A DNA stretch of 64,000 nucleotides. Source: Phycisphaerae bacterium. GTDB taxonomy: Bacteria; Planctomycetota; Phycisphaerae; JAAYCJ01. Where the stretch lies: assembly GCA_012729815.1 (NCBI GenBank), contig JAAYCJ010000133.1, positions 3,956 through 67,955 on the forward strand, in the 5' to 3' direction. Under the pieces are notes generated by a model. It saw only the letters and a list, made by a program, of their open reading frames with translations, had not been told where the DNA came from and ran no database searches. Shown here one piece after another: positions 10,801 through 55,522 of this stretch (position 1 is its first letter; each line of letters begins with the position of its first letter). The translations under genes were made by a program, and so were the position numbers.

Positions 10801-10814
10801 TGAGGAAGAAGAAG

Positions 10815-19842: not shown

Positions 19843-21891
19843 ATGACGTTGCGGGCGGTGTTGTTGGGACTGCTGGGCGGGGCGGTCTTCTGCGGATTCA
19901 CCTATTTCAACGACTCGGTGATGCTCCAGACGATGCTGATCGGCAACCACATGCCGGTTTCGGCCTATGGCGGGCTGCTGCTTTTTGTCCTGGCGGCCAA
20001 TCCGGTGCTGTTCTGGCTTCACCGGCGGCTGGCGCTTTCGGGGCGCGAGCTGGCGGTGGTTCTGGCGTTGACGCTGGTCGCCTGCTGCATTCCGGGGTCG
20101 GGTCTGTTGCGGACGTTCACCACGAATTTGATGATGCCGCAGCACTACGCCCGCACGCAGCCGGGCTGGTCGGAGCAGGGGCTGCTGGAGATGTTGCCGG
20201 AGGTCATGCTGCCGGAGACGGCGGACGAGAAGGTGATCAATGGATTTGTAAGCGGGATGCGAAAGGGGACGCGGCACATCGGTCTGGACCAGGTGCCGTG
20301 GTCGGCTTGGCGGGATTCGCTGGGTTTCTGGCTGATTCTGATTCTGTCGTTGTGGGTGGGGCTGATCGGGCTGGCGTTGGTGGTTCATCGGCAGTGGTCG
20401 GACCACGAGCAGTTGCCATACCCGGTGGCCCGGTTCGCCGATTCGCTGCTGCCGGGTCAGGGGGGGATGTGGGGCGAGGTGTTGGGCAGTCGCCTGTTTT
20501 GGCTGGGGCTTTGCGCGGTGGCGGCGATTCACCTGTACAACTACGCTGCGTTCTGGTCTCCCGCCCACCTGGTTCCGATCCAGCTTCAGGTCGATATCCG
20601 TTCGCTGGCGGACCTGTTTCCGACGTTCAAGCTCGGTCTGGGCGGATTCGGCGGGCCTTATCTGGTCACGCCTCACCTGTATTTCATCGTGATCGGTTTT
20701 GCGTATCTGCTGGCGACGGACGTGTCGCTGTCGTTGGGGATCGGGCCGTACCTCTGGCCGTGGGTGTTGGGTTTGACCGCAGCGTCCGGCTATTCGCTGG
20801 CGGGCGGAGGGTATCTGTCGCTTCAGGCCGTGACGTTTCTGAATTTCGGCGCGTACGTGGGGCTGTTCCTGGTGCTGATCTACACCGGGCGGCACTACTA
20901 CAGCCACGTATTCCGCCGGGCGCTGCTGCTGCCTTCGGCGCAGGCGGTCGAGTCGCACTCGGTGTGGGGCGCTCGGGTATTTCTGGCGTGCCTGGCGGCG
21001 TTCGTGACCATGCTGGCGGCGGCCGGCCTGGACTGGCCGCTTGCGTTTCTGTATGCGGCGGGCGCGGTGGTCATCTACCTGGTGATGGGCCGGATCATCG
21101 CGGAGACGGGGATGTTCTTCATCCAGGCGTATTGCTTTCCGTGCGTGATTCTCTGGGGCGTGTTCGGGGCTGTGGCGCTGGGGCCGCAGGCGCTGCTGAT
21201 CCTGCTGGTCTTGACGGCGGTGCTGCTGGCCGATCCGCGGGAGACGCTGATGCCGTTTGCGATCAACTCGCTCAAGATCGTGGACCTTCGGCGGGTCAGC
21301 GTGGGTCGGACGGCCGGTTTGGCCGTCGTGGCGCTGGTGGTCGGGTTGGCGATCGCGGTTCCCACGACGCTGTACTTTCAGTATGACCGCGGGGCCAACA
21401 TGGCCGACGCATGGGCAACCCGCGCGGACCAACTGCCCGGCATGCCGTACAAGGAAGTGCTCAACGTCAAGCATCGTTTGGCCGCTCAGGGCGTTCTCGA
21501 ACGATCGGAAGCGGTTTCGGGCTGGTCGCGATTTGCGGAGATGGCGCCCGGCTGGCGGTACGTAGCCGTATTCGGCGTCGGGATGGCCCTGGTGCTGGTG
21601 ATGACGGCCGGTCGGCTGCGGGTTGCCCGCTGGCCGCTGCACCCGGTGATGTTTCTGGTGTGGAACAGCTATGGCGCGTGCAACTTCGCGTTTTCGTTTT
21701 TGGTCGGATGGTTCATCAAGAGCGCGATCACCCGGTACGGCGGAGCGGCGGTCTACCAGAAGGTCAAGCCGCTGATGTTCGGGCTGATCGCCGGTGAACT
21801 GCTGGGCGGGTTCGTGCCGGTGATCATCGGGGCGATCTGCTACCTGGTGACGGGCGAACCGCCGAGGCGGTTTTTTGTCCTGCCGCTATAG
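19843..21891 (+). CDS. polytopic membrane protein, OPT-superfamily-like (possibly DUF6785/DUF6784 type)
   Basis: 682 aa with at least 12 hydrophobic segments. It has an EQLPYP motif after a TM segment. Its C-terminal block WFIKSAITRYGGAAVYQKVKPLMFGLIAGELLGG is shared with the 30757-32766 product. Confidence 0.7.
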   Translation: MTLRAVLLGLLGGAVFCGFTYFNDSVMLQTMLIGNHMPVSAYGGLLLFVLAANPVLFWLHRRLALSGRELAVVLALTLVACCIPGSGLLRTFTTNLMMPQHYARTQPGWSEQGLLEMLPEVMLPETADEKVINGFVSGMRKGTRHIGLDQVPWSAWRDSLGFWLILILSLWVGLIGLALVVHRQWSDHEQLPYPVARFADSLLPGQGGMWGEVLGSRLFWLGLCAVAAIHLYNYAAFWSPAHLVPIQLQVDIRSLADLFPTFKLGLGGFGGPYLVTPHLYFIVIGFAYLLATDVSLSLGIGPYLWPWVLGLTAASGYSLAGGGYLSLQAVTFLNFGAYVGLFLVLIYTGRHYYSHVFRRALLLPSAQAVESHSVWGARVFLACLAAFVTMLAAAGLDWPLAFLYAAGAVVIYLVMGRIIAETGMFFIQAYCFPCVILWGVFGAVALGPQALLILLVLTAVLLADPRETLMPFAINSLKIVDLRRVSVGRTAGLAVVALVVGLAIAVPTTLYFQYDRGANMADAWATRADQLPGMPYKEVLNVKHRLAAQGVLERSEAVSGWSRFAEMAPGWRYVAVFGVGMALVLVMTAGRLRVARWPLHPVMFLVWNSYGACNFAFSFLVGWFIKSAITRYGGAAVYQKVKPLMFGLIAGELLGGFVPVIIGAICYLVTGEPPRRFFVLPL

Positions 21892-22026: not shown

Positions 22027-22914
22027 ATGACGTTATGGACATGGCGGCATATTCGGATTGAGCTTCCCGACGACTGGGAGATGCTCCAGTTTTCGCGGAA
22101 GACGGACGTGGGCCGGTGCGGCTTCGCCGACCGGTATCAGTTTCGGTTGGAGCTGAGCTGGCGCAAGGTGATCGGTCCGCCGGACTACAACCGGATGCTC
22201 TCGGATTACCAAGCCAAGCTGGAGCGCGAGCGGGGGATGGAGAACAGCCGGCGAATCGCCACTGCCGGCTGGCAGGGGCTCGAGGGACGGATCGGGTCGC
22301 AGATGACAAGCCGGTTTGGATGGTACGCACCGACCGAGTCGCTGCTGCTCGAGGCGGTCTTTGTCTGGCCGCAGGACCGCGACAAGGGACTGGAACGGTT
22401 GGTGCTCGCCAGCATCGGCGAAGAGCCGGTCCGATCAGACGGTCTACGGCCGTGGCGGGCGTTTGGGATGAACGTGCTGGCTTCGGACGATCTGAGCCTT
22501 CAGGATTGCCAGGTCGAACCGGGTCTGGCGAAGCTGGTCTTCGGCCGGCCGAATTCCGAGAAGTTCCGCGAGACCTTCGAGCGTATCGGCATGGTCTCGC
22601 ACTGGCTGAATGGGACGGTGCGCGAGTGGCTGCTGGGCCGGCTTGAAGTCGAGGCGCGCGAGCCGCAGGCTGCTACGGACCGGATTGCCGATCACCAGAT
22701 TGAAACGGTATTGGTGGATTCGACGAACCGTCGAGGCGGTCGAAGCTGGTTCGGCAGGGGGGGCTGCTACCGGACGGCGGCGTGGATTTGTCCGACCGAC
22801 GGCCGTCTCTACCGGATTTCCGAGCGGCGGCCGACCGCCAGAACCTCCGACAATCTTCCCCTGGCCGGCGGCCGGCTCTGTTGCTGCAAAAGCTTGAGCG
22901 AGACTTATGGCTAA
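22027..22914 (+). CDS. hypothetical soluble protein (no recognisable domain)
   Basis: 295-aa ORF with no TM segment or signal peptide. Its last 8 nt overlap the start of the PqqD-like gene (ATGGCTAA), so the two are translationally coupled. Confidence 0.6.
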   Translation: MTLWTWRHIRIELPDDWEMLQFSRKTDVGRCGFADRYQFRLELSWRKVIGPPDYNRMLSDYQAKLERERGMENSRRIATAGWQGLEGRIGSQMTSRFGWYAPTESLLLEAVFVWPQDRDKGLERLVLASIGEEPVRSDGLRPWRAFGMNVLASDDLSLQDCQVEPGLAKLVFGRPNSEKFRETFERIGMVSHWLNGTVREWLLGRLEVEAREPQAATDRIADHQIETVLVDSTNRRGGRSWFGRGGCYRTAAWICPTDGRLYRISERRPTARTSDNLPLAGGRLCCCKSLSETYG

Positions 22915-23290
22915 AAGAAAAGTAACGGCACAGGAACCGGACCAGTCGTGGCAAAAGATGCTGCTGGCCCGGCCGGTGCGGAACGCAGCGGCCAAGGTGT
23001 CGGCCTGCAGCGACGGCTGCCTGCGGATCGCGATTCCCAACCTTCGGCCGTGGTATCTGTTTCCGCCGATTTCCTGGATGGTCCGGCCCGCGGCGAGCAA
23101 GTCCCTGGTGCTCGAAGGGCTGGGGGCGGAAGTATGGGATTTGTGCGACGGCCGTCGGACGGTTGAGGAGGTGACCGATTGCTTCGCCGCCCGCCATAGC
23201 CTGTCTTTTCACGAATCCCGCGTTTCGATCACCGGATATTTGCGTCTTTTGGTGCAGCGCGGTGCGTTGGCGATGGTAGAAGAGGCTTGA
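22907..23290 (+). CDS. PqqD-family (RiPP-recognition-element-like) small protein
   Basis: LVLEGLGAEVWDLCDGRRTVEEVTDCFAARHSLSFHESRVSITGYLRLLVQRGALAMV matches the PqqD winged-helix pattern (x-LN-x-G-x-IW-x-L-DG-x-T-x-EI ... L-x-x-G-L). Confidence 0.65.
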   Translation: MAKRKVTAQEPDQSWQKMLLARPVRNAAAKVSACSDGCLRIAIPNLRPWYLFPPISWMVRPAASKSLVLEGLGAEVWDLCDGRRTVEEVTDCFAARHSLSFHESRVSITGYLRLLVQRGALAMVEEA

Positions 23291-23519
23291 TGCGGTCAGC
23301 GACCGCTGCGGCGGTGAAGTCTGAGCAGTTGCAGTGATGTTTCGGTCCGGCCCCGTCAGAGGCAGCATGGCGGGCATTTAACCGGTTGCTCTCGAAGGAG
23401 TTGCGAGGTATGCTGGAGGGCCTGTCCGACCGTCGGACGAGGTGGATGGGCGACGCCGCAGGAGCGAAGGCCCCTGGTGCTCGGATAGGACACGCGACAC
23501 CGACAGGAACCAGAACTTA

Positions 23520-24992
23520 ATGAAGGTCATCGACATTCAGCAGCAGCCGACGATGGGGTTTTCTCGAACCCTTTCGATCACCATCATCGGGATTCGCTAT
23601 CGGCTGTTTCGCTCGCTGGTGACGGTGGTGGTCATTGCGGTGGCGGTGGCCTTTCTGATGAATATCGTAGGGGAGAGTCTGATCCGTAAATCGGTGCTGG
23701 AGAACAGCGCCGATCGCCTGCGCGAACTGCGGCACGCGGCGGTCTGGGCTGCGCGGCTTTCGGTGCCGGGCACAGCCGAGGACATCATTTTGAATCTGGG
23801 CAAGGCCGAGCCGGATTCTCCACTCTACCAGGAATCGCAGGTCCTGGCCGGATTCGACCCCGGCGAGATGCAGGCAGTTCACGAGCAGGTTTGCCGGGCG
23901 GCGGAGTACCTGACGTTCTTCGGCGAGCTGGACTACGGCCGGAGACGCCGGATGGTCGCCGGCGCCGAGGGTTCGGATATCTTCAGAAGCCTCCGTGAGA
24001 CCGGTCGGATGGAGCGGTTCGAGGACGCCCTGGCCGGCATGAAGTCGGTGCGGTTTCCGGGAACGATTGAGCAGTTCAGGGATTTCGTGGGTCAGTGGCC
24101 GGAGATCGAAGGCCGCGTTCAGCGGATTCGGGAGGGTCGTCGGCAGGCCATCCGGCAGGTGCGGGAGGTTCTGGATGGGCGTCCGGTGGTGGACGCGCTG
24201 ACCGACGCGACGGGTCAGTTCGGCCAGGCGGTCCGGGCGGCGGGTTTTCGACTCGGTGAGGATGAGGCCGGCGCGGTGGCCCGCGAGGCGCGGCGGATGG
24301 TGGACGTTCGCATTCTCGAGGACAGCGTGAACAAACCGGCGATACGCAAGGCGCTGTCATCCCGGCTGGACGTGCTGCCGGCGGACGTGACGGTTCAGAC
24401 GCTTTGGGATTTCGTGGGCAGCCGCGAGAACGCCGAGTGGTACCTGGCGAAGATGCGGGAGGGTGAACTGGACACGGCGGGCCTGACCGTCGAGCGGACA
24501 GTGGAACTGGCGGGCGTGGACGCTGAGTTCGCGAGCCTGGTGCGGGCTGAGCATCTGGGCGGCGACCTGAGCGGCGGATTTCTGGGCGTCGGCGAACGGA
24601 TGACCTGGCTGATGCTGGTCTCGATGCTGGTCTGCGTGGTCGGCATCGCCAACGCCATGCTGATGTCGGTGACGGAACGGTTTCGGGAAATCGCGACGCT
24701 CAAGTGCCTCGGGGCGCTGGACGGTTCGATCATGCTGATGTTCGTGCTCGAGGCGGCCCTGTTGGGCGTGGTGGGCGGCGTGATGGGAGCGGTCGGCGGC
24801 GTGCTGATCGCTTTGGGCCGGATGATCGGCTCGTTCGGATCATTGATGTTCGGCGCGACTCCGGCGGGCGACCTGACGGCGGCGGCGATTGCAGCCACGG
24901 TGGTGGGCGTGGTGCTGGCGGCGGTCGCGGCGGTCTATCCTTCGTTCAAGGCGGCGCGGCTTGCGCCGATGGAGGCGATGCGCATCGAGTAG
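23520..24992 (+). CDS. FtsX/MacB-type (type VII) ABC permease with large atypical loop
   Basis: The N-terminal TM is LFRSLVTVVVIAVAVAFLMNIV, followed by a charged loop of about 320 aa. The C-terminal FtsX block is MLMSVTERFREIATLKCLGA...AAVYPSFKAARLAPMEAMRIE. An alternative GTG start exists at 23442. Confidence 0.85.
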   Translation: MKVIDIQQQPTMGFSRTLSITIIGIRYRLFRSLVTVVVIAVAVAFLMNIVGESLIRKSVLENSADRLRELRHAAVWAARLSVPGTAEDIILNLGKAEPDSPLYQESQVLAGFDPGEMQAVHEQVCRAAEYLTFFGELDYGRRRRMVAGAEGSDIFRSLRETGRMERFEDALAGMKSVRFPGTIEQFRDFVGQWPEIEGRVQRIREGRRQAIRQVREVLDGRPVVDALTDATGQFGQAVRAAGFRLGEDEAGAVAREARRMVDVRILEDSVNKPAIRKALSSRLDVLPADVTVQTLWDFVGSRENAEWYLAKMREGELDTAGLTVERTVELAGVDAEFASLVRAEHLGGDLSGGFLGVGERMTWLMLVSMLVCVVGIANAMLMSVTERFREIATLKCLGALDGSIMLMFVLEAALLGVVGGVMGAVGGVLIALGRMIGSFGSLMFGATPAGDLTAAAIAATVVGVVLAAVAAVYPSFKAARLAPMEAMRIE

Positions 24993-25049
24993 CGAAACGG
25001 ATCCGGGGCCTCGGAGGGCTTCGGTCACCAAACCCAAGTGCGGTTGACG

Positions 25050-25895
25050 ATGGCGAAGAAAAACAAAGCAACCAGGACATCGAGCGAAAAGGGCGGAACG
25101 GCGCAGGTCGCGACTGTGGCCCAGACCCAGCCGCAACCGGCGGCCAGGTCCGGCGGCGATGAGCGGCGGGTCATCATCCGGGCGATCGCGTTAAAGAAGT
25201 CCTATATGCAGAAGGAGGTCGAGACGCAGGCCCTGCGAGGGGTCAACGTCGAGATCTACACCGGCGAGTTCATCTCGGTGATGGGGCCGTCGGGTTCAGG
25301 CAAGAGCACGTTTTTCAACATGATCGGGGCTCTGGACAGCCCGACCAGCGGGCGGGTGTTCATCGACGAGGTGGACGTGGCGCAGTTGACGGCGGTGGAG
25401 CTGGCGTTTCTGCGCTGCCGCAAGATCGGCTACATCTTTCAGAGCTACAACCTGATTCAGTACATGACGGCGTTGGAGAATGTGACCACGCCGATGGCGT
25501 TCGCCGGAGTCGGTCCGGACGAGGCGCGGGTTCGCGGCATGTCGCTGCTGGAGATCGTGGGCCTCAAGGAGCGGTGGTTCCATCGCCCGATCGAGATGTC
25601 CGGCGGCCAGCAGCAGCGGGTGGCGATCGCCCGGTCGATGGCCAACAACCCGAGCATTCTGCTGTGCGACGAGCCGACGGCCAACCTGGACCTGCACACC
25701 GGGCGGGAGATTCTCACCATTCTTCAGCGGCTGAACCGCGAGCGGGGCGTGACCATCATTTGCGCGACCCATGACCACCGGATGCTGGACATCTGCGACC
25801 GGCTGATGTGGATTCGCGACGGGCAGATCGAGCGGATCGCCCGGCGCGACGAGGTCCACATCGAGGTCGGAGCGATCGACGACGAAGAGCACTAG
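25050..25895 (+). CDS. ABC transporter ATP-binding protein (MacB/LolD class)
   Basis: Walker A is GPSGSGKST, the signature is [14 protein letters not shown], and Walker B is ILLCDEPTANLD. A low-complexity N-terminal tail of about 45 aa precedes the ATPase core. Confidence 0.9.
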   Translation: MAKKNKATRTSSEKGGTAQVATVAQTQPQPAARSGGDERRVIIRAIALKKSYMQKEVETQALRGVNVEIYTGEFISVMGPSGSGKSTFFNMIGALDSPTSGRVFIDEVDVAQLTAVELAFLRCRKIGYIFQSYNLIQYMTALENVTTPMAFAGVGPDEARVRGMSLLEIVGLKERWFHRPIEMSGGQQQRVAIARSMANNPSILLCDEPTANLDLHTGREILTILQRLNRERGVTIICATHDHRMLDICDRLMWIRDGQIERIARRDEVHIEVGAIDDEEH

Positions 25896-25900
25896 AGACC

Positions 25901-28900
25901 ATGCGGAAAACGACCAACACGAATGGGACCCTCTCGCGGAGCGCGGCGATTGCCGTTGCGATCGCGCTGTCTGTGATTCCGGTGGCGCGGGGGCGCGCGG
26001 ATGTGGCGCAGTTTCAGAAGGATTGCGCCGAGCTGACCGCCTCGCCCCATCGGCTGACCGGAACCAAGGAGTACCGTCAGGCGGCGGAATACGTTCGTGG
26101 GCGGCTTGAGGGGATCGGGGCCGACGCGGTGGTGGTCCAGGAATTTCCCGCGGCCCAGACGCGAACCAACCGCTGCGAGATTCAGATCGCCGGCGGCGAG
26201 GACGGCGGGACGCGGCGGCTGGAGCTGTTCGCGATCCGCCCGAACGGGATCGTGCCGCCGGTGACTCCGGAGGGCGGGATCACGGGGCCGATCCTCCACG
26301 CCGGGACCGGGCGGCCCGAGCACTACGGAACCCGCAGCCCGCGCGGGTGCATCGTCGTGCTCGACTACAACAGCGGCCGGGAGTGGCTGCGGGCGTTTCG
26401 GTTGGGGGCCAAGGCGGTGATCTTCGTCCGCGAGGGCGACCTGCGGGCCTCGGAGTCGCACGTGCTGTCCGCCGACACCAACCTGCTGCGGTTCTACTAT
26501 AACGGTTCGCGGCAGGACTTGCCCGAAGGGGCCAAGGCCACCATCCACAGCGAGGTGGTCTGGGAGCGGGTGGCCGGGCGCAATGTGTTCGGATTTTTCC
26601 GCGGGACCGACCCGCGGTTCGCGATGGGGGCTGATGAGGTGCTGGTGGCGGCGGCCAACCTGGACAGTTTTGGCGAGGCGCCGCAGATCAGTCCCGGCGC
26701 CCGCGGCGCGGCCAACTGCGCCGGGTTGCTCGCGTTCGCCGAGCACATCAAGACCAACCGCCCGAGGCGGCACGTGCTGGTCGCGTTTCTGGACGCCCAG
26801 GCCCGCGGGCACATGGGAAGCTGCGCGTTCTACCGGGCCTTGGACAAACGGCATGCGAAGGTGACCACCGAAGCCCGCCAAGGCTATCTGGATCGTGAGC
26901 GGAGTTTTCTGACCGCGATCGAAAAGGTGCTTGCCCAGGCCGAGCCCCTCCAGGCCGTTGCCCCGTCCGCGGTGCGTGGAGAACTGACCGAGCGGCTCGA
27001 GCGGAAGGCTGAGGAACACGCCTATGACCTGACCGACCGGCTGGCCGGGCTTCGCGAGCAGCGGCAGGCGCTTGAGAATGACTCGCCGAAGTACCAGGAA
27101 ATCCAGGCCCGGATCGACGAGGCGGAGCAGCGCAAGGACGAGTGGAACGACGTGCGCCGGGCTCTTCTGGATACCAAGGCGCCGGTGGCTCAGAACCTTC
27201 GCGATGAATTCGACCAGGTCTTCGACGAGGTCCGCGAGGACATCCGCATTCGGATGGTCCAACTCGACTTCGACGAGGGGGGTCTTGACGCCGACGTCCG
27301 GCTCAATGAGTTGATCGGCGACGACTGGATCTGCCTGCACACCTCGTTCCTGTTCGGCGACGCGACGGCCCGCTGGGGATTGCTGATCGGAGGCGACTCG
27401 TACTTCCATTCGGACAAGGATAACCCGGGCCTTTACAGCAGCGTTCAGCGGGACTTCCTGGCGGCCTGCGACGGCCTCAAGGCGGGCGGACGTGAGATTG
27501 GAAGTTTCGAGCGGGCCTCGGCCGACGGGATGCTGAGCGCTCCGCGGCTGCTGTTGACCGCGCCCTTTCTGATCCACAGCGGGGAGATCGCCGGGCGGAT
27601 GGGCATCTACAACCTGGCCCTGGGTACGGTCCAGGAGGACCTGTCGCGCGAGGGCACTCCGGACGACACGCTGGACCGGCTTGACCTGGCGCGGATGGCG
27701 AGCCAGATCGGGGAGGCTTCGGAACTGCTGGGGGCGGTGGCCAGCGAGGAGGGGCTCTCGCAGCACAGATCGGTGGCGCAGGAACGGGGATACATCTGGC
27801 CGCAATTCAGCGGCAACCGCGCCGAAGGGGCGATGGCAATGGGCAAGCCTCCGGGCAGCTCGATGCCGACCAAGCCGATGACCGGGGCGGTGGTCAAGCT
27901 GCCGCCTCAGCCGGGCGCCCGCTACATGTACCAACCCTGCAAATCGTACGGTTTTGACAACTTTCAGGTGATGCTGACCGACCAGAACGGCTGCTACGCC
28001 TTCGGTCCGATCATCGACCTGGCGCTGCTACCCAGCGGTATGGCCCTCATGTTCGATTCGCGCGGGCTTCCCACGTACGCCAGCACACAGGAGTCGGCCA
28101 TCGAGGCTCAGACGCGGCTGGAAATGTTCCCCTGCCGGTGGGGCCGGGTGCTGTTGCCGCCGCTGCTGGAGATCCTGGAGGCCAAGCCGCTGGACGGCAT
28201 GGGTAACAGCCTGCTCGATCCGTCCAAGTCCTTTTTCGCCACCTCCGACGGCGTGGTGTTCTGGTACTGCGAGGACAAGGTCAGATCGGTCAAGGTGTTC
28301 GGCGAGCGGTCGCAGGCCCTGTTCGTCAACGGTCCCGAGTCGCTGGAGGGGAACTACCGGGACCTGATCAAGGACGATCAGTACCTTGGCGACGGACTGC
28401 CCACCGACGACCCGTGGATGACGGTGGACGCGAGCCGGCGGTTTAGTTCGGACCTCTGGCGGCTCAACGAGGCGCGTCTGGCGGTGCTGCGGTCGCGGGA
28501 CATCATGAACAGTTCGATCGAGGAGTTGCACGGCCGCTCGGAAGACCTGATGACGGCGGCCGAGGGGACCGAGCCGATCGAGGTCGGCGAGGCCCTGGCC
28601 GCCTCGTGCGGCATGGCTGAGCTGCCGGTTTACGTCGATACGCGCAAGACGCTGGACGACCTGGTGCGGGCGGTGCTGGTGCTGCTGGCCCTGTCGGTGC
28701 CGTTCGCGTTCGCGTTGGAGCGGCTGCTGATCGGCTCGACCAACGTTTACCGGCAGATCCTGTGGTTCGTCTTCATCTTCACCTTGACGTTCCTGGTGCT
28801 GTTCTTCACGCACCCGGCGTTCGCGGTGTCCAAGACCCCGATCATCATCTTCCTGGGTTTCGCGGTGGTGGTGCTTTCGTCGCTGGTGATCTTCATCATC

Positions 28901-30727
28901 ATGCGCAAGTTCGAGGTGGAGCTGAAGGTGCTTCAGGGTTTGACCTCGACGGTGCACGCGGCCGACGTTTCGCGGTTCGGCACGATCATGGCGGCGATGG
29001 CGATGGGCATTTCGACCATGCGTCGGCGTCCGCTGCGGACGGCGCTGACCGCGGTGACGATTATCCTGCTGACCTTCACGATCCTGTGCTTTGCCTCGTT
29101 CGGAACGGAGAAGGGGATCATCACGCTGTTCGTGATGCCCACGCCGGGCTATTCGGGCGCGTTCATGCACCACGTGAACTGGCGCGAGATGAACCCGGAG
29201 GTCCAGGACGTGCTGATGGGGCGGTGGGGCAAGAGCGCCACCGTGTGTCGGCGCTATTGGCTTTCTCCGGAGGCTGAGAACCAGGTGACCGGGCCGCTGG
29301 TCTCGCGCGAGGACGGGACCGAGGTGGTGGCGTTGCGGGGCGTGTTGGGGCTTGACGATCGCGAGTTGGCGCACCGCGAGGATTTGACCGAGCTGCTGGG
29401 CGTCCAGGAGATGGGCGAGCGGGTCTGGATGACGCAGGCGGTGGCCGAGCGGCTGAAGGTCGCGCCGGGCGATCACGTTCTGATCGGCGGACAGCGGCTG
29501 GAGGTGGGCAAGCTGCTGGACCCGGTCAAGGTGTCGATCACCCGCGACATGGACGACAGCGATATTCTGCCCGTCGACCTGGTGGAGCTCAAGAGCACCA
29601 CCACGGAGGATATGGACGAGATGGTCAAGGAAGACCCGCTGATCATCCAGTACCGCCAGAACTGGTCCACGCTGCCGATCGACTCAGTGGTGATTACGGG
29701 GAACGCAGCGGCGATGCGGATGGGGGCGTCGCTGCGGGCGATTTCGCTGTACACCGCGAACCCGAAGGCGGCGATCGAGGCGGCTGAGGACCTGGCGCGG
29801 ATCATGCCGATCCCGGTCAGCGCCACCCGGCAGGACGGGGTCTATCGGCACCTGCTGGGTCCGGTGGTCGAGGCGAGCGGGGCCAAGGACCTGCTGTTCC
29901 CGATCCTGCTGGGCGGTCTGGTGATCTTCGGGACGATGCTGGGATCGGTCGCCGACCGCGAGAAGGAAATCTACACTTTCAGCGCCCTGGGTCTGGCGCC
30001 GCCGCACGTGGCGGGCCTGTTCTTTGCCGAGGCGATGGTCTATTCGGTGATCGGCGGGCTTGGCGGGTACATGCTGGCCCAGGGGTCGCTCAAGATTCTC
30101 TCGGTGCTGGCCGGCTATGGTCTGGTCCGCGTGCCGGAGATGAACTACTCGTCGACCAACGCGGTGGTGACCATCCTGATCGTAATGTGCACGGTGCTGA
30201 TCTCGGCGATCTACCCGGCGATCAAGGCGTCTCGCAGCGCCAACCCGGGCATCCTGCGTTCGTGGCGGCTGCCGAGCCCGGACGGCGACGTCTTTGACAT
30301 TGTGTTTCCGTTCACCGTGTCGGAATACGACATTACCGGCGTGGTCAGCTTCCTCAAAGAACACTTCGACAACTACAGCGACACCGGGCTGGGCGTATTC
30401 ATGGCGCGGGGCACCGCACTGGTGCGCCGCAACGGCAGCCTGGGTTTGAGCAGCGAGGTGGCGCTGGCTCCGTTCGACCTGGGAGTCACCCAGCGGTTCG
30501 AGCTGTCCAGTGCGCCCAGCGAGATTCAGGGGATCGACGAGGTCAAGATCCGGCTCGTCCGCAAGTCGGGCCAGCCGAAGGACTGGCGGCGGCTCAACAA
30601 GGTGCTGCTCGACGACCTGCGCAAGCAGTTCCTGATCTGGCGGTCGCTGCCTCACGAGACGATGGAGATGTACCGCCACCGGGTGCTGGCGGAGTTGGGA
30701 ACAAGCGGCGGCGCGGCGAGGAGTTGA
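25901..30727 (+). CDS. 1608-aa fusion: signal peptide, degenerate M28/PA peptidase-like domain, coiled coil, 3 TM, FtsX-type permease module, cytoplasmic C-terminal domain
   Basis: ATG 25901 lies 5 nt after the ATPase stop. An M28-like scaffold is present (GRNVFGFFRG, VLVAAANLDSFG, SPGARGAANCAG, VAFLDAQARGHMGS). The coiled coil has heptad-like character (LERKAEEHAYDLTDRLAGLREQRQALEND...). The FtsX block is VADREKEIYTFSALGL...AIYPAIKASRSANPG. Confidence 0.85.
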   Translation: MRKTTNTNGTLSRSAAIAVAIALSVIPVARGRADVAQFQKDCAELTASPHRLTGTKEYRQAAEYVRGRLEGIGADAVVVQEFPAAQTRTNRCEIQIAGGEDGGTRRLELFAIRPNGIVPPVTPEGGITGPILHAGTGRPEHYGTRSPRGCIVVLDYNSGREWLRAFRLGAKAVIFVREGDLRASESHVLSADTNLLRFYYNGSRQDLPEGAKATIHSEVVWERVAGRNVFGFFRGTDPRFAMGADEVLVAAANLDSFGEAPQISPGARGAANCAGLLAFAEHIKTNRPRRHVLVAFLDAQARGHMGSCAFYRALDKRHAKVTTEARQGYLDRERSFLTAIEKVLAQAEPLQAVAPSAVRGELTERLERKAEEHAYDLTDRLAGLREQRQALENDSPKYQEIQARIDEAEQRKDEWNDVRRALLDTKAPVAQNLRDEFDQVFDEVREDIRIRMVQLDFDEGGLDADVRLNELIGDDWICLHTSFLFGDATARWGLLIGGDSYFHSDKDNPGLYSSVQRDFLAACDGLKAGGREIGSFERASADGMLSAPRLLLTAPFLIHSGEIAGRMGIYNLALGTVQEDLSREGTPDDTLDRLDLARMASQIGEASELLGAVASEEGLSQHRSVAQERGYIWPQFSGNRAEGAMAMGKPPGSSMPTKPMTGAVVKLPPQPGARYMYQPCKSYGFDNFQVMLTDQNGCYAFGPIIDLALLPSGMALMFDSRGLPTYASTQESAIEAQTRLEMFPCRWGRVLLPPLLEILEAKPLDGMGNSLLDPSKSFFATSDGVVFWYCEDKVRSVKVFGERSQALFVNGPESLEGNYRDLIKDDQYLGDGLPTDDPWMTVDASRRFSSDLWRLNEARLAVLRSRDIMNSSIEELHGRSEDLMTAAEGTEPIEVGEALAASCGMAELPVYVDTRKTLDDLVRAVLVLLALSVPFAFALERLLIGSTNVYRQILWFVFIFTLTFLVLFFTHPAFAVSKTPIIIFLGFAVVVLSSLVIFIIMRKFEVELKVLQGLTSTVHAADVSRFGTIMAAMAMGISTMRRRPLRTALTAVTIILLTFTILCFASFGTEKGIITLFVMPTPGYSGAFMHHVNWREMNPEVQDVLMGRWGKSATVCRRYWLSPEAENQVTGPLVSREDGTEVVALRGVLGLDDRELAHREDLTELLGVQEMGERVWMTQAVAERLKVAPGDHVLIGGQRLEVGKLLDPVKVSITRDMDDSDILPVDLVELKSTTTEDMDEMVKEDPLIIQYRQNWSTLPIDSVVITGNAAAMRMGASLRAISLYTANPKAAIEAAEDLARIMPIPVSATRQDGVYRHLLGPVVEASGAKDLLFPILLGGLVIFGTMLGSVADREKEIYTFSALGLAPPHVAGLFFAEAMVYSVIGGLGGYMLAQGSLKILSVLAGYGLVRVPEMNYSSTNAVVTILIVMCTVLISAIYPAIKASRSANPGILRSWRLPSPDGDVFDIVFPFTVSEYDITGVVSFLKEHFDNYSDTGLGVFMARGTALVRRNGSLGLSSEVALAPFDLGVTQRFELSSAPSEIQGIDEVKIRLVRKSGQPKDWRRLNKVLLDDLRKQFLIWRSLPHETMEMYRHRVLAELGTSGGAARS

Positions 30728-30756: not shown

Positions 30757-32766
30757 ATGGCAAAGGAACGCATCGATAGGGAACTGGAAGAGTTTCGCGG
30801 GGTCATGCAGGCCCCGTCCACCTTCGAGGACGGCTTTAACTGGTCGTCGTTCCTCGGCGCGTTGTTCATCGGGTTCCTGATGGTGCCCGGTGCGATGTAC
30901 ATGGCCCTGCTGGCCGGGCAGGGGATCGGGCCGGCCGCCCAGTGGGTGACGGTGATCCTGTTCATCGAGGTCGCGCGTCGGGCCCACCGGCAGCTCAAAG
31001 GGGCTGAGGTGTTCGTGCTGTTCTTCATGGCCGGGGCGATGATGCTCAGCGTGGGCATGGGCGGCCAGATTCAGGGTCTCTTGTGGAATCAGTTCTACGT
31101 TCGCAGCGACTCGGCGATCAACATGGGCATCGCTGAATTGCTGCCCACCTGGTTCGCTCCCGCAGCGGATTCGCCGTCATACGCGTCGCGGACGTTTTTC
31201 CACTGGGACTGGCTGCCCGCGATCGGATTGTTGATTTTCGGGGCGTTTTTCGGGCAGCTTAACAACATGGTGCTGGGTTACGGGTTGTTCCGGCTGACCA
31301 GCGACATTGAAAAGCTGCCGTTCCCGATGGCCCCGATCGGGGCCCAGGGCATTCTGGCCCTGGCTGAGGACATTGACGAGAAGGCTGAGAAGGGATCCGA
31401 GGGCAACTGGCGATGGCGGGTGTTCGCGATCGGTGGGGCGTTGGGGTTGGCGTTCGGCGCGGTCTACCTGCTGCTTCCGACGCTGACCGGCGCGCTGACC
31501 GGCGAGCCGATCATGATCTTCCCGATCCCGTGGAGCGATTTTACGACCAAGACGGCCGACTGGCTGCCCGCGGTGGCGACCGGCATGAGCTGGGACTTCG
31601 GCCAGCTCATCACCGGCATGGTGCTGCCGTTCTTCGGGATGCTCGGCAGCTTCATCGCCCTGGTGGCGACGTTCGTGGTCAACCCGATCCTGCACCACCC
31701 GGACATCCGGATTCTCCACTCGTGGACGCGGGACCAAGGGACGATCGAGACGCTGTTCGTCAACAACGTGGACTTCTACTTCAGCTTCGGGATCGGCATT
31801 TCCATCGCGATCGCGGGGGCCGGTTTCTGGGAAGTCTACAAAGGGATCAAGCGACGCCGTCGCGAGGCCCGGGAACAGGGCGTCTCGGTCCGACAAGCCT
31901 CCGCCGTGCCGAAGGGCCGCGGCGACATCAAGGGGTGGCTGATCGTCGCGTCATACATCATCGTGACCATGGCGTACATCATCGTCTCGGGCTTCCTGAT
32001 CGACTGGCATCCGTGGGTGATGGTGGTGCTGTTCTTCCTCGGTTTCGTCTACACGCCGCTGATCAGCTACGTGACCGCCCGTCTTGAGGGCATGGTCGGG
32101 CAGGTGGTCGAAATTCCGATGATCCGCGAGGCCAGCCTGATTCTCAGCGGGTACCAGGGCGTGGCGGTATGGTTCATACCGATTCCGATGGCCAACTACG
32201 GGTCGATGACGGTCTTCTACCGCCAGTGCGAGTTGACCGGGACCAAGTTCACCAGCATCTGGAAGGCCCAGATCATCCTCTACCCGATCATCCTGCTGAC
32301 CTCGATCTTCTTCGCCAACTTCATCTGGGGTCTGGCTGAGGTGCCTTCGGCGGTGTATCCCTTCGCCCAGGAATGGTGGGAACTCGACGCCGCCAATCGC
32401 AGCATCATGTACTCCTCGACGCTGGGCGATTTCTCGATCTTCGAGGAGGCGTTCAAGGGTTGGTACGTGGCGGCCGGGGCGGGATTTGGCTTGAGTCTCT
32501 TCGCCGTGATGACGTTCTTCGGAACGCCGGTGTTCTTCATCTACGGCTTTATCCGCGGCCTGGGCCAGGCGATGCCGCACGCCATCATTCCGCAGTTCAT
32601 CGGGGCGTTGATCGGACGCTACTATTTCCAGCGGAAGCTGGGACTCAAGTGGCGGCAGTACATCCCGGTGGTGGCGGCGGGTTTCTTCTGCGGGCAGGGG
32701 CTGATCACCACCGTCGGCGTGGGCATCACGTTCCTCAGCAAGGCCGTCATTCAAATGCCGTTCTAG
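30757..32766 (+). CDS. polytopic membrane protein, OPT-superfamily-like, paralogous to 19843-21891
   Basis: 669 aa with many hydrophobic segments. It has an EKLPFP motif. Its C-terminal block QFIGALIGRYYFQRKLGLKWRQYIPVVAAGFFCGQGL parallels the other copy. Confidence 0.75.
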   Translation: MAKERIDRELEEFRGVMQAPSTFEDGFNWSSFLGALFIGFLMVPGAMYMALLAGQGIGPAAQWVTVILFIEVARRAHRQLKGAEVFVLFFMAGAMMLSVGMGGQIQGLLWNQFYVRSDSAINMGIAELLPTWFAPAADSPSYASRTFFHWDWLPAIGLLIFGAFFGQLNNMVLGYGLFRLTSDIEKLPFPMAPIGAQGILALAEDIDEKAEKGSEGNWRWRVFAIGGALGLAFGAVYLLLPTLTGALTGEPIMIFPIPWSDFTTKTADWLPAVATGMSWDFGQLITGMVLPFFGMLGSFIALVATFVVNPILHHPDIRILHSWTRDQGTIETLFVNNVDFYFSFGIGISIAIAGAGFWEVYKGIKRRRREAREQGVSVRQASAVPKGRGDIKGWLIVASYIIVTMAYIIVSGFLIDWHPWVMVVLFFLGFVYTPLISYVTARLEGMVGQVVEIPMIREASLILSGYQGVAVWFIPIPMANYGSMTVFYRQCELTGTKFTSIWKAQIILYPIILLTSIFFANFIWGLAEVPSAVYPFAQEWWELDAANRSIMYSSTLGDFSIFEEAFKGWYVAAGAGFGLSLFAVMTFFGTPVFFIYGFIRGLGQAMPHAIIPQFIGALIGRYYFQRKLGLKWRQYIPVVAAGFFCGQGLITTVGVGITFLSKAVIQMPF

Positions 32767-32778: not shown

Positions 32779-33504
32779 ATGAGCGACGAAAATCTGATCG
32801 AAATCCGGAACCTGAACAAGACCTTCAACCTCGGCAAGATCGTGGTCCGAGCCCTGAAGGACGTGAGCCTCGACATCTTTCGCGGCGAGTACCTCTCGAT
32901 CATGGGGCCTTCCGGTTCCGGCAAGAGCACGCTGTTCAACATGATCGGGGCCCTGGATCGTCCCAGCAGCGGACAGGTTACGGTGGCTGGGGTGGACCTG
33001 ACCAAGCTCACCAGCCGGCAACTGGCTTACTTCCGCGGCAACCACATCGGCTACATCTTCCAGACGTTCAACCTGATCCCCGCCTATAACGCCATCGACA
33101 ACGTGGCGCTGCCCATGATCTTCAGCGGCAGGAGTTATGACGAGGCGGTCGAGCGGGCCAAGGAGGTCCTGGCCCAGGTGGGCCTCGGCCATCGCGTCAC
33201 CCACCGGCCGGACGAGCTGTCGGGCGGCCAGCAGCAGCGGGTGGCCATCGCCCGGGCCCTGGCCAATCAGCCGGCCATCATCCTCGCCGACGAGCCCACC
33301 GGCAACCTCGACCTGCACACCGGCGAGGAGATCATCGGCCTGCTCAAGCAGCTCAGCCGCGAGACCGGCGTGACCGTCATCACCGCCACGCACGACCATA
33401 AGATGCTCGACATCTCCGATCGCATCCTCTGGATCAAGGACGGAGCGATCGACCGCCTCGAACGCCGCGAAGATGTCAACATCCGCCTCGGCACGGTGAA
33501 ATGA
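32779..33504 (+). CDS. ABC transporter ATP-binding protein (MacB/LolD class), paralogue of 25050-25895
   Basis: It carries [23 protein letters not shown] and [12 protein letters not shown]. Its tail [31 protein letters not shown] is very close to HDHRMLDICDRLMWIRDGQIERIARRDEVHI in the first ATPase. Confidence 0.9.
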
Positions 33505-33544: not shown

Positions 33545-33579
33545 GCCGGACCGGCCCAACGACGGCGGACCGGTCCGGC
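33545..33579. terminator. 10-bp GC stem-loop between convergent genes (candidate bidirectional terminator)
   Basis: GCCGGACCGG (33545-33554) and CCGGTCCGGC (33570-33579) are exact reverse complements around a 15-nt loop. On the minus strand the stem is followed by UUCUCUCU. There is no U-tract on the plus strand. Confidence 0.3.
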
Positions 33580-33599: not shown

Positions 33600-34757
33600 T
33601 CAGTACCTGAACACCGCGGCGATGCGGTGGCCGTTGTTCAGCTTGCCCGGATCCACCGCGTAGACCGTTCCGTTGTTCAGAAGCGTGTACATGGCGGCCA
33701 GGTCGGCCAGGTCTTCGTCGCCGCGGGCCGGCTTCTCGTGCAGTTCGACGGTTCCGGCCTGCGGGTCGAAGCGTCCCCACTGTTGATGGTTCGGGGCCAG
33801 GAACAGGTACTGGTTTCTGGCCTGTAGGGCGGCCGGCAGCACGGTGCTGATGTCGGTCGAGGCCCGTTCGGTGCCGGCCAGCCGGCCGTACTGGCCGATG
33901 GCGTCATCGAGTCCCTGGGTGAAGATCGGCTCGACGATCTGCCAGGCCCGCTCGTGAAGCTGTCTGGCCGAGAGCTTGTCGGGACTGCCCGCGATCCCTT
34001 CCGGCACCAGGTGCGGGTACGAGTTGGCCTCGCGGTAGATCGCCTGCAGGTATTCGACTCCGGCGATCACCAGCGGGGCCTTGTCCGTCGCGAACATCTT
34101 CTGCAGGCCGCGGTCGATCGCCTGGACGTACCGCAGCAGATCCTTCTTGTGCTTGGCGTCGTCGATGCCGCTGCCGTGGCCGTGGTATATAGCGTCTCCA
34201 GTGCCCGCGCGGGCTTGCGGAGCGGTGTGGAACTGGAGCTGCTTTTCCGCCACGTCGAACCGCAGCACCTCGGCCAGGCTGGCCGGCAGTTCGTCGGCCC
34301 GCAGTTCACGAACGCTGTAGCGGGTGCCTTGCAGGATCCGCGTCCCGTTCTGGCTCATCGCCAGCACGTAGAACCGCCCGTCGCCGGTGAACAGCGGCAT
34401 CAGGGGCTTAAGGTGCAGGTGCGAACCGGCAATCACGACCTCGCGAAAACTCAGCGGCAACCGGTAGTGCCGATAGAAGCCCGGACAGACGAAGATGGCC
34501 AGCCCGTCGCTCTGGTGCCGCCAGAAGATGCTGTCGAGCAACAGGTCCGAGGCGGGCTTCAGCAGCGATCCGGCCTTCTCGGCCGCCATGCCCATTTCCT
34601 GAAGCTGTCCCTCCGCCCGTCGCAGCAGATTCTTCAGGCGGATCGGGTCCTCCTGCGTCTCCTGCCCCGCCTCATGCGTCGGCATGTAGATTGAGACGCA
34701 CGGAGATTCGGCCTGCTCGATCAGTGTCTTGAGTTCGTCGATCTGCAACAGATTCAT
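33600..34757 (-). CDS. bacterial archaeo-eukaryotic release-factor-like (baeRF-family-like) protein
   Basis: The N-terminus LKTLIEQAESPCVSIYMPTHEAGQETQEDPIRLKNLLRRAEGQL matches my memory of the baeRF-type family signature. The 385-aa length fits eRF1 middle plus C domains. No GGQ motif is present. The assignment is from memory and was not searched. Confidence 0.55.
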   Translation of the reverse strand: MNLLQIDELKTLIEQAESPCVSIYMPTHEAGQETQEDPIRLKNLLRRAEGQLQEMGMAAEKAGSLLKPASDLLLDSIFWRHQSDGLAIFVCPGFYRHYRLPLSFREVVIAGSHLHLKPLMPLFTGDGRFYVLAMSQNGTRILQGTRYSVRELRADELPASLAEVLRFDVAEKQLQFHTAPQARAGTGDAIYHGHGSGIDDAKHKKDLLRYVQAIDRGLQKMFATDKAPLVIAGVEYLQAIYREANSYPHLVPEGIAGSPDKLSARQLHERAWQIVEPIFTQGLDDAIGQYGRLAGTERASTDISTVLPAALQARNQYLFLAPNHQQWGRFDPQAGTVELHEKPARGDEDLADLAAMYTLLNNGTVYAVDPGKLNNGHRIAAVFRY

Positions 34758-37027: not shown

Positions 37028-37483
37028 ATGGGGTCGGGGGACAGCCGTGGGGACATCCGGATCGTTCACCGTCAGTGGTTTTCCGTCGGGCAAATCCCTT
37101 CGTACCGTCGCGCTGTGGATTCGCTGTTCGAGGAGTTGATCTACCAGGCGTGGGGACGGGCCGAGTGGGCGCCCGAAGTGGACGTGACGGAAACGCAGGA
37201 CGCCTTTGTTGTCGAAATCGATCTGCCCGGAGTGGACGAGGAGAGCATCGTCATCGCTGTGCGCGACGGGCGGCTCCTGGTCAAGGGGCGGCGCCCGCAC
37301 CGCGCCCAGGCGGCTGGGACATGCGTGCACGTCTGCGAACGGCCGGAGGGCCAGTTCGCCCGGACCTTCGAATTCCGCTTTCCCATCGATACCGGGGCCA
37401 TGGAGAAGAAATACGCCAACGGAGTCCTGACGCTGACGCTGCCGAAGCGCAGATACGATAAGGAGGAACGTCATGGGGGATGA
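37028..37483 (+). CDS. Hsp20/alpha-crystallin small heat-shock protein
   Basis: WAPEVDVTETQDAFVVEIDLPGVDEESIVIAVRDGRLLVKG ... ANGVLTLTLPK is a canonical alpha-crystallin domain. The 3' end overlaps the Lon-like gene start by 11 nt. Confidence 0.9.
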   Translation: MGSGDSRGDIRIVHRQWFSVGQIPSYRRAVDSLFEELIYQAWGRAEWAPEVDVTETQDAFVVEIDLPGVDEESIVIAVRDGRLLVKGRRPHRAQAAGTCVHVCERPEGQFARTFEFRFPIDTGAMEKKYANGVLTLTLPKRRYDKEERHGG

Positions 37484-43080: not shown

Positions 43081-43103
43081 ACTCGTCAGATCAGTGGGGG
43101 GCT

Positions 43104-55513: not shown

Positions 55514-55522
55514 TAGGAGACA

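Follow-up and report, generated by a model that had tools for sequence, protein, structure and literature searches.

A giant fusion of a peptidase-like head and a MacB/LolCE-type ABC permease in a conserved gene cluster of a Phycisphaerae bacterium

In this study, a gene for a giant protein of 1,608 amino acids (aa) was analyzed. The gene lies at 25,901 to 30,727 (+) of a 64,000-nucleotide stretch of DNA (hereafter the window) from a Phycisphaerae bacterium (GenBank assembly GCA_012729815.1, contig JAAYCJ010000133.1, positions 3,956 to 67,955 of the forward strand). The giant protein is a peptidase-like head fused to an ATP-binding cassette (ABC) permease of the MacB/LolCE type. We believed, with a probability of roughly 0.45, that it is one half of a heterodimeric type VII (MacB/LolCDE-class) ABC mechanotransmitter that carries a fused non-catalytic receptor head. 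Type VII mechanotransmission is an already established class of mechanism; the fused zinc-less PA-M28 head is new, and the set of partner genes is unusual. An earlier reading of the sequence (the original prediction) had described a fusion of a catalytically dead M28/PA peptidase-like domain, a coiled coil and an FtsX module, and had asked whether it was the logic of FtsEX-EnvC in one polypeptide. Pfam, the family profile and AlphaFold2 agreed that one chain combines a pseudo-peptidase with a helical arm and a permease of the FtsX type.

The longest open reading frame (ORF) of the giant gene extends from 25,808 to 30,727 (+). The ATG at 25,901 was chosen as the start because the GTG at 25,808 overlaps the upstream gene for ABC ATPase 1 and the start given in the database copy (V35) drops the signal segment. 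The GTG would also add an Arg-rich, non-conserved stretch. The ATG is located 5 nt past the stop of the ATPase 1 gene, and from it the coordinates quoted in the original prediction translate to the residues claimed there. The first 30 residues (25,901..25,990, +) form a signal peptide or N-terminal anchor, with a hydrophobic segment at aa 9-29 and zero conserved columns. In the hydropathy scan, the next strong transmembrane (TM) candidate starts from aa 917; a weak hydrophobic stretch at aa 700-718 falls within a beta-rich domain. TM segments were found at aa 920-944, 950-972, 978-1002, 1046-1068, 1330-1352, 1370-1392 and 1418-1442, so that three TM segments precede the FtsX module, as had been proposed. 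Because the N-terminal ~900 residues are outside the membrane and seven TM helices follow, the tail (aa 1446-1608) is cytoplasmic, close to the 160 aa expected. Databases list homologues of the giant protein as 'FtsX-like permease family protein', 'M28 family peptidase' or 'hypothetical protein'.

The head contains an M28 fold in two parts. The first part (aa 31-322; 25,991..26,866, +) was assigned by profile and Foldseek and includes an inserted PA domain (about aa 96-215). The second part (aa 473-625; 27,317..27,775, +) was assigned by AlphaFold2, Foldseek and conservation, and is marked by the invariant H480, H559 and REGTPDDT block (aa 583-590). The Pfam model Peptidase_M28 matched the N-terminal 400 aa with an E of 1.8e-4 and 21.8 bits (curated cut-off 21.3), a partial match that covers profile positions 11-81 only. 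A profile of 39 members of the giant family matched two PA-domain M28 aminopeptidases, 2ek8 at E 2e-11 and YwaD/BSAP 6hc6 at E 2e-8. It also reached nicastrin chains (E 4e-6), within the M28 core that both have in common. The trimmed family profile matched transferrin receptor 1 (TfR1) at about 1e-4 (E 9e-5). With the Pfam Nicastrin model (PF05450), the head gave an E of 0.16 and 12 bits against a cut-off of 25, and its relation to nicastrin is at the level of clan or fold only. The AlphaFold2 model of aa 31-930 was confident, with a predicted local distance difference test score (pLDDT) of 91.7 and a predicted template modelling score (pTM) of 0.90. Foldseek matched this model to 2ek8, BSAP, PaAP, GCPII and TfR1 with E of 6e-18 to 1e-14, a probability of 1.0 and target-normalised TM-scores of 0.52-0.60. 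The bacterial PA-domain M28 aminopeptidases lay at 6e-18 to 2e-15, and TfR1 and GCPII at about 1e-14. On the profiles and the predicted structure, the M28 homology of the head was confirmed as real and not a chance match, as the original prediction had it.

The metal site is where the head departs from the peptidases. In the HMMER alignment, N253-L-D255 (26,657-26,665; context A-A-N-L-D-S) sits at the H-x-D motif, with Asn in place of His. G269, within G266-A-R-G-A-A-N-C-A-G275 (26,696-26,725), falls under the bridging Asp of P-G-A-x-D-(D/N)-x-S-G. Q300-A301 (26,798-26,803) falls under E-E of G-A-E-E-x-G-L-x-G-S, where the window reads D-A-Q-A-R-G-H-M-G-S. These are the three replacements that had been read from the window by eye, and alignment to M28 profiles confirmed them and showed that the loss is family-wide. 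The head retains the alpha/beta fold of M28, but of the five metal ligands (His, bridging Asp, Glu, Asp/Glu, His) the first three are replaced, by N253, G269 and A301, and the general-base Glu is Q300 here.

Two sets of relatives were compared at these positions: a close set of 120 homologues, and a divergent alignment of the window protein with 31 full-length members at 26-44% identity (n = 32). The His of H-x-D is kept in 14 of the 120 close members. The bridging Asp column holds Asp or Glu in 0/120 and Asp in 6/32 of the divergent alignment. The Zn-ligand Glu is found in neither set (0/120 and 0/32). The general-base position is occupied by Gln in 98/120, by Glu in 12/120 and by Asp in 1/120 (Glu or Asp, 13/120). 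Of the four canonical residues expected at HxD, the bridging Asp and EE, every close member keeps at most one (two or more in 0/120), and the EE pair is present in 0/32 of the divergent alignment. The full set of zinc ligands was absent from every aligned divergent member and every examined family member. Because no complete site is kept in the 120 close and 31 divergent members, the alignments indicate that the zinc site was lost early in the family and is not a decay specific to the window.

The pocket around the former site shows the opposite of decay. D255 (119/120), R268 (118/120), H480 (120/120) and H559 (118/120) are near-invariant, and N272, R302, E562, E584 and D589 are invariant or nearly so in the same 120 members. 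The middle segment of M28 is the best-conserved part of the head, with 28% of columns at least 90% conserved. To judge from these columns, the former active-site pocket is conserved and not eroding. By motif register only, the last two metal-ligand positions appear to be H480 and H559; the spacing from H559 to TPDDT matches the spacing in the Aeromonas aminopeptidase.

The closest relatives of the head are 2ek8 (Aneurinibacillus AP), 6hc6 (B. subtilis YwaD/BSAP) and 8acg (P. aeruginosa PaAP), all of which have their PA domain inserted at the equivalent point. Those proteins are soluble, secreted and active di-zinc enzymes of 400-500 aa, whereas the giant protein has its ligands and base replaced, carries a 150-aa helical arm and is a membrane protein of 1,608 aa. 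Nicastrin and TfR1 are non-catalytic eukaryotic M28/PA members, used for binding or gate-keeping. Like them, the giant head is a membrane-tethered PA-M28 ectodomain that has lost its zinc ligands and, as we suppose, serves a non-catalytic role. Unlike them, it is bacterial, is fused to an ABC permease instead of a single-pass anchor, and has a helical insertion past the former 'EE' strand and a beta-rich domain.

The helical arm (aa 323-472; 26,867..27,316, +) lies in the M28 fold. DSSP of the AlphaFold2 model gave four helices, at aa 323-344, 357-389, 396-423 and 431-472. In the model, this arm of ~150 aa is an insertion inside the fold, after the former EE strand. It is placed there because the strands resume at aa 476-484, past the arm, because the Foldseek alignments of the head span 612-648 columns (targets of 407-486 residues), and because the counterpart of the REGTPDDT block in 2ek8 is a 'TPNDT' block close to the C-terminus. 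A local HMMER match to residues 372-401 of 2ek8 falls at about aa 586-615. With an arm-deleted profile (A4), HMMER aligned to about aa 316 only, plus the short 'TPDDT' block. The long coiled coil of the original prediction was right as to the existence of helices but not as to their place, which is a four-helix insertion within the M28 fold and not a segment after it. Likewise, of the roughly 500 further periplasmic residues supposed to follow, about 150 are the second half of the M28 fold, and the rest is extracytoplasmic as described.

The arm is the least conserved part of the giant protein (6% of columns at least 90% conserved among the 120 members) and carries a few invariant charged residues, E333, R420 and R451. 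Every large length difference between family members, +227 aa at most, maps to loops of the arm (alignment A5); they occur in P0006, P0052, P0059, P0060, P0067 and others, at window aa 348-357, 394 and 429. This suggests that the reach of the arm may have been tuned lineage by lineage. After the M28 fold, a beta-rich domain occupies about aa 626-830 and is followed by stalk helices; the two make up aa 626-919 (27,776..28,657, +) in the AlphaFold2 models of both halves. By sequence, this region matched none of the solved structures. The last stalk helix (aa 893-939) runs unbroken into the first extra TM helix, TMa, in the models.

Three extra TM helices, TMa-c (aa 920-1002; 28,658..28,906, +), were located by hydropathy. 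P934, F935, E940, R941, H971 and P972 are invariant here, and 48% of the columns are at least 90% conserved. They are followed by an FtsX module of the MacB/LolCE type (aa 1003-1445; 28,907..30,235, +), identified by Pfam FtsX, sequence matches in the PDB and Foldseek. The module consists of a cytoplasmic amphipathic helix, TM1 (aa 1044-1068), a periplasmic domain of ~260 aa (aa 1069-1328) and TM2-4 (aa 1329-1445), which is an FtsX-type topology. A periplasmic domain of this length is usual for MacB and Lol proteins. Pfam FtsX (PF02687) matched aa 1334-1445 with E 5.8e-10, above the cut-off, and Pfam MacB_PCD gave no match. The PDB sequence matches of the module were 5xu1, MacB, LolF and YtrF. 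Foldseek of the aa 901-1608 model placed LolE and LolC of the lipoprotein-bound LolCDE first (E 1e-11), with alignments of 450-480 columns over the whole chain. Spr0694-0695 (5xu1), HrtB and MacB came next, and YbbP and BceB lower; the values were E 1e-11 to 1e-9 for LolE, LolC, MacB, HrtB and YbbP and reached 7e-5 over the whole set. The probability was 1.0 for LolE/LolC, MacB, HrtB, YbbP and BceB. True FtsX structures ranked 25th or lower, at E 5e-4. None of the three FtsX models of NCBIfam matched the giant protein, and the small periplasmic domain with Porter and X-lobe, by which FtsX proper clamps the coiled coil of its partner (PMC7668044), was not found in its permease. No Lol model of NCBIfam matched it either; the best model was ADOP, with 32.5 bits against a cut-off of 622. 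In the aa 901-1608 model, the pLDDT was about 90-97 in the periplasmic domain and about 80-90 in the tail. By the sequence matches and the model, the permease half belongs with the MacB/LolCE type of type VII ABC systems and is not the division protein FtsX. The claim of a complete FtsX module was therefore kept for the topology and the Pfam match but not for the class, which is Lol/MacB-like.

The cytoplasmic tail (aa 1446-1608; 30,236..30,727 including the stop codon, +) is an alpha/beta domain by AlphaFold2 and conservation. It is among the most conserved parts of the giant protein, with 50% of columns at least 90% conserved in the 120 members. Foldseek gave weak matches of SRPBCC/START/Bet v1 kind (3lyd at E 2e-3; Ara h 8, PYL and TTHA0849 at 4e-3 to 1e-2), and a 37-member profile of the tail found nothing in the PDB or Pfam for this assignment. 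We know of no type VII permease with a START/Bet v1-like tail domain of this kind.

The giant gene is part of a cluster of eight co-oriented genes (+), from a DUF6785/6784 gene through ABC ATPase 2. A second FtsX-type permease is encoded by a 516-aa ORF at 23,442..24,992 (+; Pfam FtsX E 1.4e-15). It has TM1 at about aa 53-80, a periplasmic domain of ~300 aa and three TM helices, and is 27% identical to the 3-TM block of the giant protein. Its scores with the NCBIfam models for LolC/E and MacB were weak (LolCE, 41 bits against a cut-off of 362). Its true start is probably M27 at 23,520: the longest-ORF start (23,442-23,519) gives it ~26 non-conserved aa when compared with homologues of 489-490 aa. 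ABC ATPase 1 (25,038..25,895, +; Pfam ABC_tran E 3e-31) is of the LolD/MacB/FtsE type. Comparison with homologues of 241-260 aa suggests that the true start of its gene is probably internal as well, since the longest-ORF start (25,038-25,170) adds ~45 non-conserved aa. Both N-terminal extensions are Arg- or Gln-rich. ATPase 1 has an intact Walker A, signature motif, H-loop and Walker B, the last with its catalytic Glu, and its best NCBIfam models were LolD, DarD, DevA, MacB and FtsE. A cognate ATPase of the LolD/MacB/FtsE class thus stands beside the permease.

Downstream, the giant gene is adjoined at its 3' side by the gene for an OPT-superfamily-like polytopic membrane protein of 669 aa (30,757..32,766, +), followed by ABC ATPase 2 (32,779..33,504, +; Pfam ABC_tran E 6e-36; best NCBIfam models LolD and MacB). 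The two ATPases are paralogues with 55% identity (BLASTP E 4e-99), and their motifs are intact in both. Their matches to the LolD/MacB/DarD/DevA/FtsE models (E 1e-58 to 1e-72) were below the equivalog cut-offs; with the LolD model, they reached 217-244 bits against a cut-off of 308. The intergenic gaps from the second FtsX gene to ATPase 2 are 5-45 nt.

The conservation of this cluster was determined in 83 related loci; a genome scan supplied 80 of them, and two look-ups of encoding contigs the other three. In the scan, relatives were found in at least 303 species genomes, of which the best 80 were examined; homologues with the same fusion, which the original prediction had proposed to look for, are thus widespread. 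The OPT-like gene was directly downstream of the giant gene in 69/69 loci, and ATPase 2 was downstream in 65/69. ATPase 1 and the second FtsX were upstream in at least 62/67 loci; four of the five misses were tblastn cross-hits or a diverged upstream FtsX, and both genes were still placed upstream there. A PqqD-like gene was upstream in 50/59 loci and the gene for an orphan protein, p295, in 47/59, a pair that returns beside the cluster in about 80% of loci. Of the 34 loci with full flanks, 24 have a DUF6785 homologue no further than 10 kb from the giant gene. Identity to the window was ~80% for ATPase 1, ~75% for ATPase 2 (75-85% for the ATPases), ~65% for the OPT-like protein and 47% for the second FtsX. 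The giant homologues are ~50% identical over 1,600 aa; for all these proteins, the conservation across phyla is unusually high. With the second FtsX, two ATPases, the OPT-like and the PqqD-like protein as conserved partners, the idea of a self-contained system in one polypeptide did not hold.

The best 80 of the at least 303 genomes belong to lineages of the Planctomycetes-Verrucomicrobia-Chlamydiae (PVC) group, to Sumerlaeia or to unclassified metagenome-assembled genomes (MAGs). Most come from Planctomycetota (Phycisphaerae and Brocadiia among them), Verrucomicrobiota, Opitutales, Kiritimatiellia and Lentisphaeria/Victivallales. Sumerlaeia contributes a single genome, several others are MAGs without a classification, and the sole cultured strain is Oligosphaera ethanolica DSM 24202. 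With only the head as query, an exhaustive search of 1.84 billion representatives gave, at E<=1e-30, 149 clusters at the 50% identity level. Fusions of ~1,600-1,900 aa make up most of these, and the short ones look like contig fragments. No relative with an intact active site and no split gene was found among the E<=1e-30 clusters and the aligned divergent members; ~700 further matches at E 1e-30 to 1e-10 lie outside this survey. Literature searches returned nothing relevant on the giant family or its cluster.

These data lead to the following model. The C-terminal 4-TM FtsX module of the giant protein would pair with the 516-aa FtsX permease, as LolC does with LolE, and the two adjacent, 55%-identical ATPases would form the nucleotide-binding dimer. 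A heterodimer is assumed because the order FtsX516-ABC1-giant-OPT-ABC2 is conserved (62-69 of 67-69 loci) and the ATPases are paralogous. Going by the mechanism of the superfamily, ATP binding and hydrolysis would move the TM1/TM2 stalk helices and the periplasmic domains. The motion could then be passed on to the ~900-residue extracytoplasmic head through TMa-c and the continuous helix of aa 893-939 (stalk-TMa). ATP-driven mechanotransmission, a long-range change of conformation, and not transmembrane transport is the hallmark of the type VII (MacB/LolCDE/FtsEX) superfamily, in which YbbP and BceB, too, have TM helices in addition to the 4-TM core (PMC12646458). From this membership, ATP-driven mechanical control instead of transport, as the original prediction had it, would be a reasonable default. 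The head may be a non-catalytic binding or receptor module of the nicastrin/transferrin-receptor kind, because the zinc site and the general base are lost while the pocket is strongly conserved. The length-variable arm could serve as a lever or spacer.

The ligand is the most speculative step of the model. Our leading guess is a peptide or a peptide-bearing molecule, because of the OPT-like permease, the PqqD-like protein and a peptidase-derived pocket lined with Arg and His. In its fuller form, the cluster would encode an envelope machine not recognised before, in which a heterodimeric type VII motor drives a zinc-less M28/PA receptor head that captures, holds or releases a peptide, together with the OPT-like permease and the PqqD-like peptide chaperone. 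We regard this fuller form as tentative and on the doubtful side.

Several points weigh against our model. The literature search found no experiment on any member of the family. The stoichiometry was read from gene order alone, and the giant protein may instead form a homodimer. H480, H559 and the pocket geometry were assigned by motif register; in the divergent alignment, H559 is found in only 5/32 members (the alignment is uncertain here). The TM bundle of the aa 901-1608 model is of low confidence. The link of the cluster to peptides is circumstantial: the OPT-like copy of the window matches Pfam OPT (PF03169) weakly (E 0.14, profile positions 131-616), and neither a precursor-peptide gene nor a modifying enzyme was found near the cluster.

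An extractor of the Lol or YbbAP kind is the alternative that survives best, and we consider it unlikely. The permease would pull a lipid-anchored or hydrophobic molecule (lipoprotein, lipopeptide or lipid) out of the cytoplasmic membrane's outer leaflet, and the fused head would be a built-in acceptor or chaperone that replaces LolA or TesA. The nearest known systems are LolCDE and the wider MacB superfamily (MacB, HrtBA, BceAB, YbbAP, Spr0694-0695). In common with LolCDE/MacB, the giant protein has a 4-TM FtsX-type module in which TM1 and TM2 are separated by a large periplasmic domain. Two different permeases, a pairing that would resemble LolC and LolE, are encoded side by side, with LolD/MacB-type ATPases for which LolD is the best model. 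The top rank of LolE and LolC in Foldseek, with YbbP also listed, agrees with an extractor, as does the weak likeness of the conserved tail to the lipid-binding START/Bet v1 fold. Many type VII systems extract lipid-like substrates (PMC12646458). However, all Lol and MacB scores of NCBIfam are far below the family cut-offs, as given above, with no Lol match for the giant protein. The ~900-aa head, the three extra TM before the FtsX module, the conserved 160-aa cytoplasmic tail and the use of two ATPase paralogues instead of one are not features of LolCDE/MacB. The cluster has no LolA/LolB-like gene and no MacA, TolC or TesA gene, while its OPT-like gene is obligate and its PqqD-like gene frequent. 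The START-like tail has no sequence support and is on the cytoplasmic side, and the Arg/His-lined M28/PA pocket suggests a polar or anionic ligand and not an acyl chain.

The FtsEX-EnvC reading would make the giant protein an activator in one chain, with the arm moved by the ATP cycle and a separate hydrolase of the periplasm, for the cell wall or otherwise, then bound and activated by the pseudo-M28 domain. EnvC is a catalytically dead peptidase fold that acts as an activator and is driven through an antiparallel coiled coil; its conserved N-terminal hairpin docks on the X-lobe of FtsX (PMC7668044). The likeness to FtsEX-EnvC, and also to the systems with PcsB, CwlO or RipC, is that a type VII module, a helical arm and a dead metallopeptidase fold occur together (PMC7668044), and ATP-driven mechanical control outside the membrane is a plausible logic for both. 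The invariant charged residues of the arm also fit. On the other hand, the giant head is M28/PA and not M23/LytM, and its parts are covalently fused. The arm is a poorly conserved, length-variable insertion in the peptidase fold, in contrast to the N-terminal hairpin of EnvC that is bound by the X-lobe. The permease is Lol/MacB-like with a ~260-aa periplasmic domain, and FtsX is distant in both Foldseek and NCBIfam. The OPT-like and PqqD-like genes have no counterpart in FtsEX systems. No periplasmic hydrolase gene was conserved near the giant gene in the gene tables and the 83-locus survey; a partner may be encoded elsewhere. For these neighbourhoods, the search for co-occurring periplasmic enzymes, which the original prediction had suggested, gave a negative answer. 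Of the analogy to EnvC, the motor, the helices and the dead metallopeptidase fold remain, and the FtsX class, the docking hairpin and the target hydrolase do not. We consider this reading rather improbable.

It is still less probable that the head is an enzyme. A non-canonical metal site or a metal-free site (H480, H559, D255 and E562, plus R268 and R302) would hydrolyze a substrate that the ABC module feeds to the head, as YbbAP feeds TesA. In its favour, the close family keeps two His and several acidic residues near the old site almost without change, the pocket is more strongly constrained than the remainder of the head, and glutaminyl cyclase and some other M28-clan relatives work with one metal. 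Against this, each canonical metal site keeps at most one ligand by motif register, the general base is Gln in most close members, and the bridging Asp and the Glu ligand are missing in 120/120. The variation of H559 and R268 in divergent full-length members is unexpected for catalytic residues.

Just as improbable is an ordinary export or immunity pump of the MacB/BceAB/DevCA kind, acting on a peptide or on some other product that is secreted, with the head as a scaffold, dimerisation unit or periplasm-spanning spacer that has no specific ligand pocket. For it, the ATPases reach good scores with the models for DarD (darobactin export), DevA and bacteriocin export too, TfR and GCPII, both matched here by Foldseek, dimerise through the same fold, and the variable arm length fits a spacer. 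Against it, neither the window cluster nor the three loci with called genes showed a membrane-fusion (MacA/HlyD/DevB) or outer-membrane (TolC) gene, the near-invariant polar residues of the old active site argue for a specific pocket, and type VII systems typically pass no substrate across the membrane (PMC12646458).

If the heterodimeric mechanotransmitter model is true, the giant family would give the type VII systems an example with motor and partner in one chain. Type VII systems (MacB, LolCDE, FtsEX, YbbAP, BceAB) are textbook examples of ABC proteins whose mechanical work is done outside the membrane, and each characterised one pairs the motor with a different separate partner: MacA, LolA, EnvC or TesA. 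The loss of metal in a peptidase fold would be the same evolutionary move as that of nicastrin and the transferrin receptor in eukaryotes. In the fuller, peptide-handling form of the model, the head would be the first bacterial M28 pseudo-peptidase acting as a mechanically actuated receptor, and the cluster would represent a new ATP-gated pathway of peptide trafficking or peptide sensing. The giant protein would also be a compact single-chain model for the coupling of mechanotransmission to an effector domain. The identity of the cargo, if found, would give a function to four families: the giant protein, DUF6785/6784, p295 and the OPT-like protein.

The remaining genes of the cluster lie upstream. 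The first encodes a polytopic membrane protein of 682 aa with DUF6785 and DUF6784 (19,843..21,891, +; Pfam E 3e-81 and 3e-21), which has many hydrophobic segments and a variable position in the cluster. It is followed by the gene of p295, an orphan cytoplasmic protein of 295 aa (22,027..22,914, +) with no hydrophobic segment. No match to p295 was found in Pfam, NCBIfam or the PDB, and a 33-member profile gave no PDB match at E<=10 and no meaningful Pfam match. The p295 gene overlaps by 8 nt the PqqD-like gene, which encodes a protein of 127 aa of the type of recognition elements for ribosomally synthesised and post-translationally modified peptides (RiPPs) (22,907..23,290, +; Pfam PqqD E 3.7e-7, above the cut-off); the NCBIfam PqqD-family models matched it weakly only. 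No conserved small ORF that could encode a precursor peptide was found near the PqqD-like gene, without a systematic small-ORF search. The only small called gene, upstream of the PqqD-like gene in one locus (L002:3-170, '...EVGLEPTT...'), looks like a spurious ORF over a tRNA gene.

The Kiritimatiellia homologue of the OPT-like protein matched Pfam OPT at E<=1e-5 (precomputed), and a JGI homologue matched it weakly; the OPT-like protein has no relative in the PDB. The OPT-like and DUF6785 proteins both carry a 'sD.E.LP[FY]P' motif, and its positions in the two correspond (aa 179-192 and aa 183-196). Their relation as paralogues was unsupported (BLASTP E 0.028; hhalign probability 0.7%). A terminator scan located a hairpin with a 14-bp G+C-rich stem at 33,545..33,579, between the stop of ATPase 2 (33,504) and the stop of a convergent baeRF gene (33,600). 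This hairpin is likely a bidirectional terminator that closes the operon. No Rfam match, riboswitch or other RNA, was obtained anywhere in the window.

Beyond the hairpin, the window encodes a baeRF-family protein next to an M50 site-2-protease-like protein with CBS domains and a LonC-like (LonB-type AAA+) protease (33,600-34,757, -; 35,662-36,822, -; 37,473-40,013, +). The baeRF protein matches families 7 and 3 (E 7e-48 and 1.5e-43); baeRF is the bacterial homologue of archaeo-eukaryotic release factors. A long, co-oriented cluster for polysaccharide biosynthesis follows at 41,578-57,333 (+). It encodes a GT4 (WecA-like) initiating transferase, a WecG/TagA protein, a Wzy_C O-antigen-ligase-like protein and several GT1/GT2 transferases, and also a 940-aa protein with FHA and AAA_31/ParA-like parts. 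At the other end of the window, a DUF1559 protein with an N-terminal prepilin-type methylation motif is encoded at 10,785-11,570 (+). DUF1559 proteins are expanded in Planctomycetota, and its presence fits with Planctomycetota MAGs as the nearest relatives of the cluster (59% identity).

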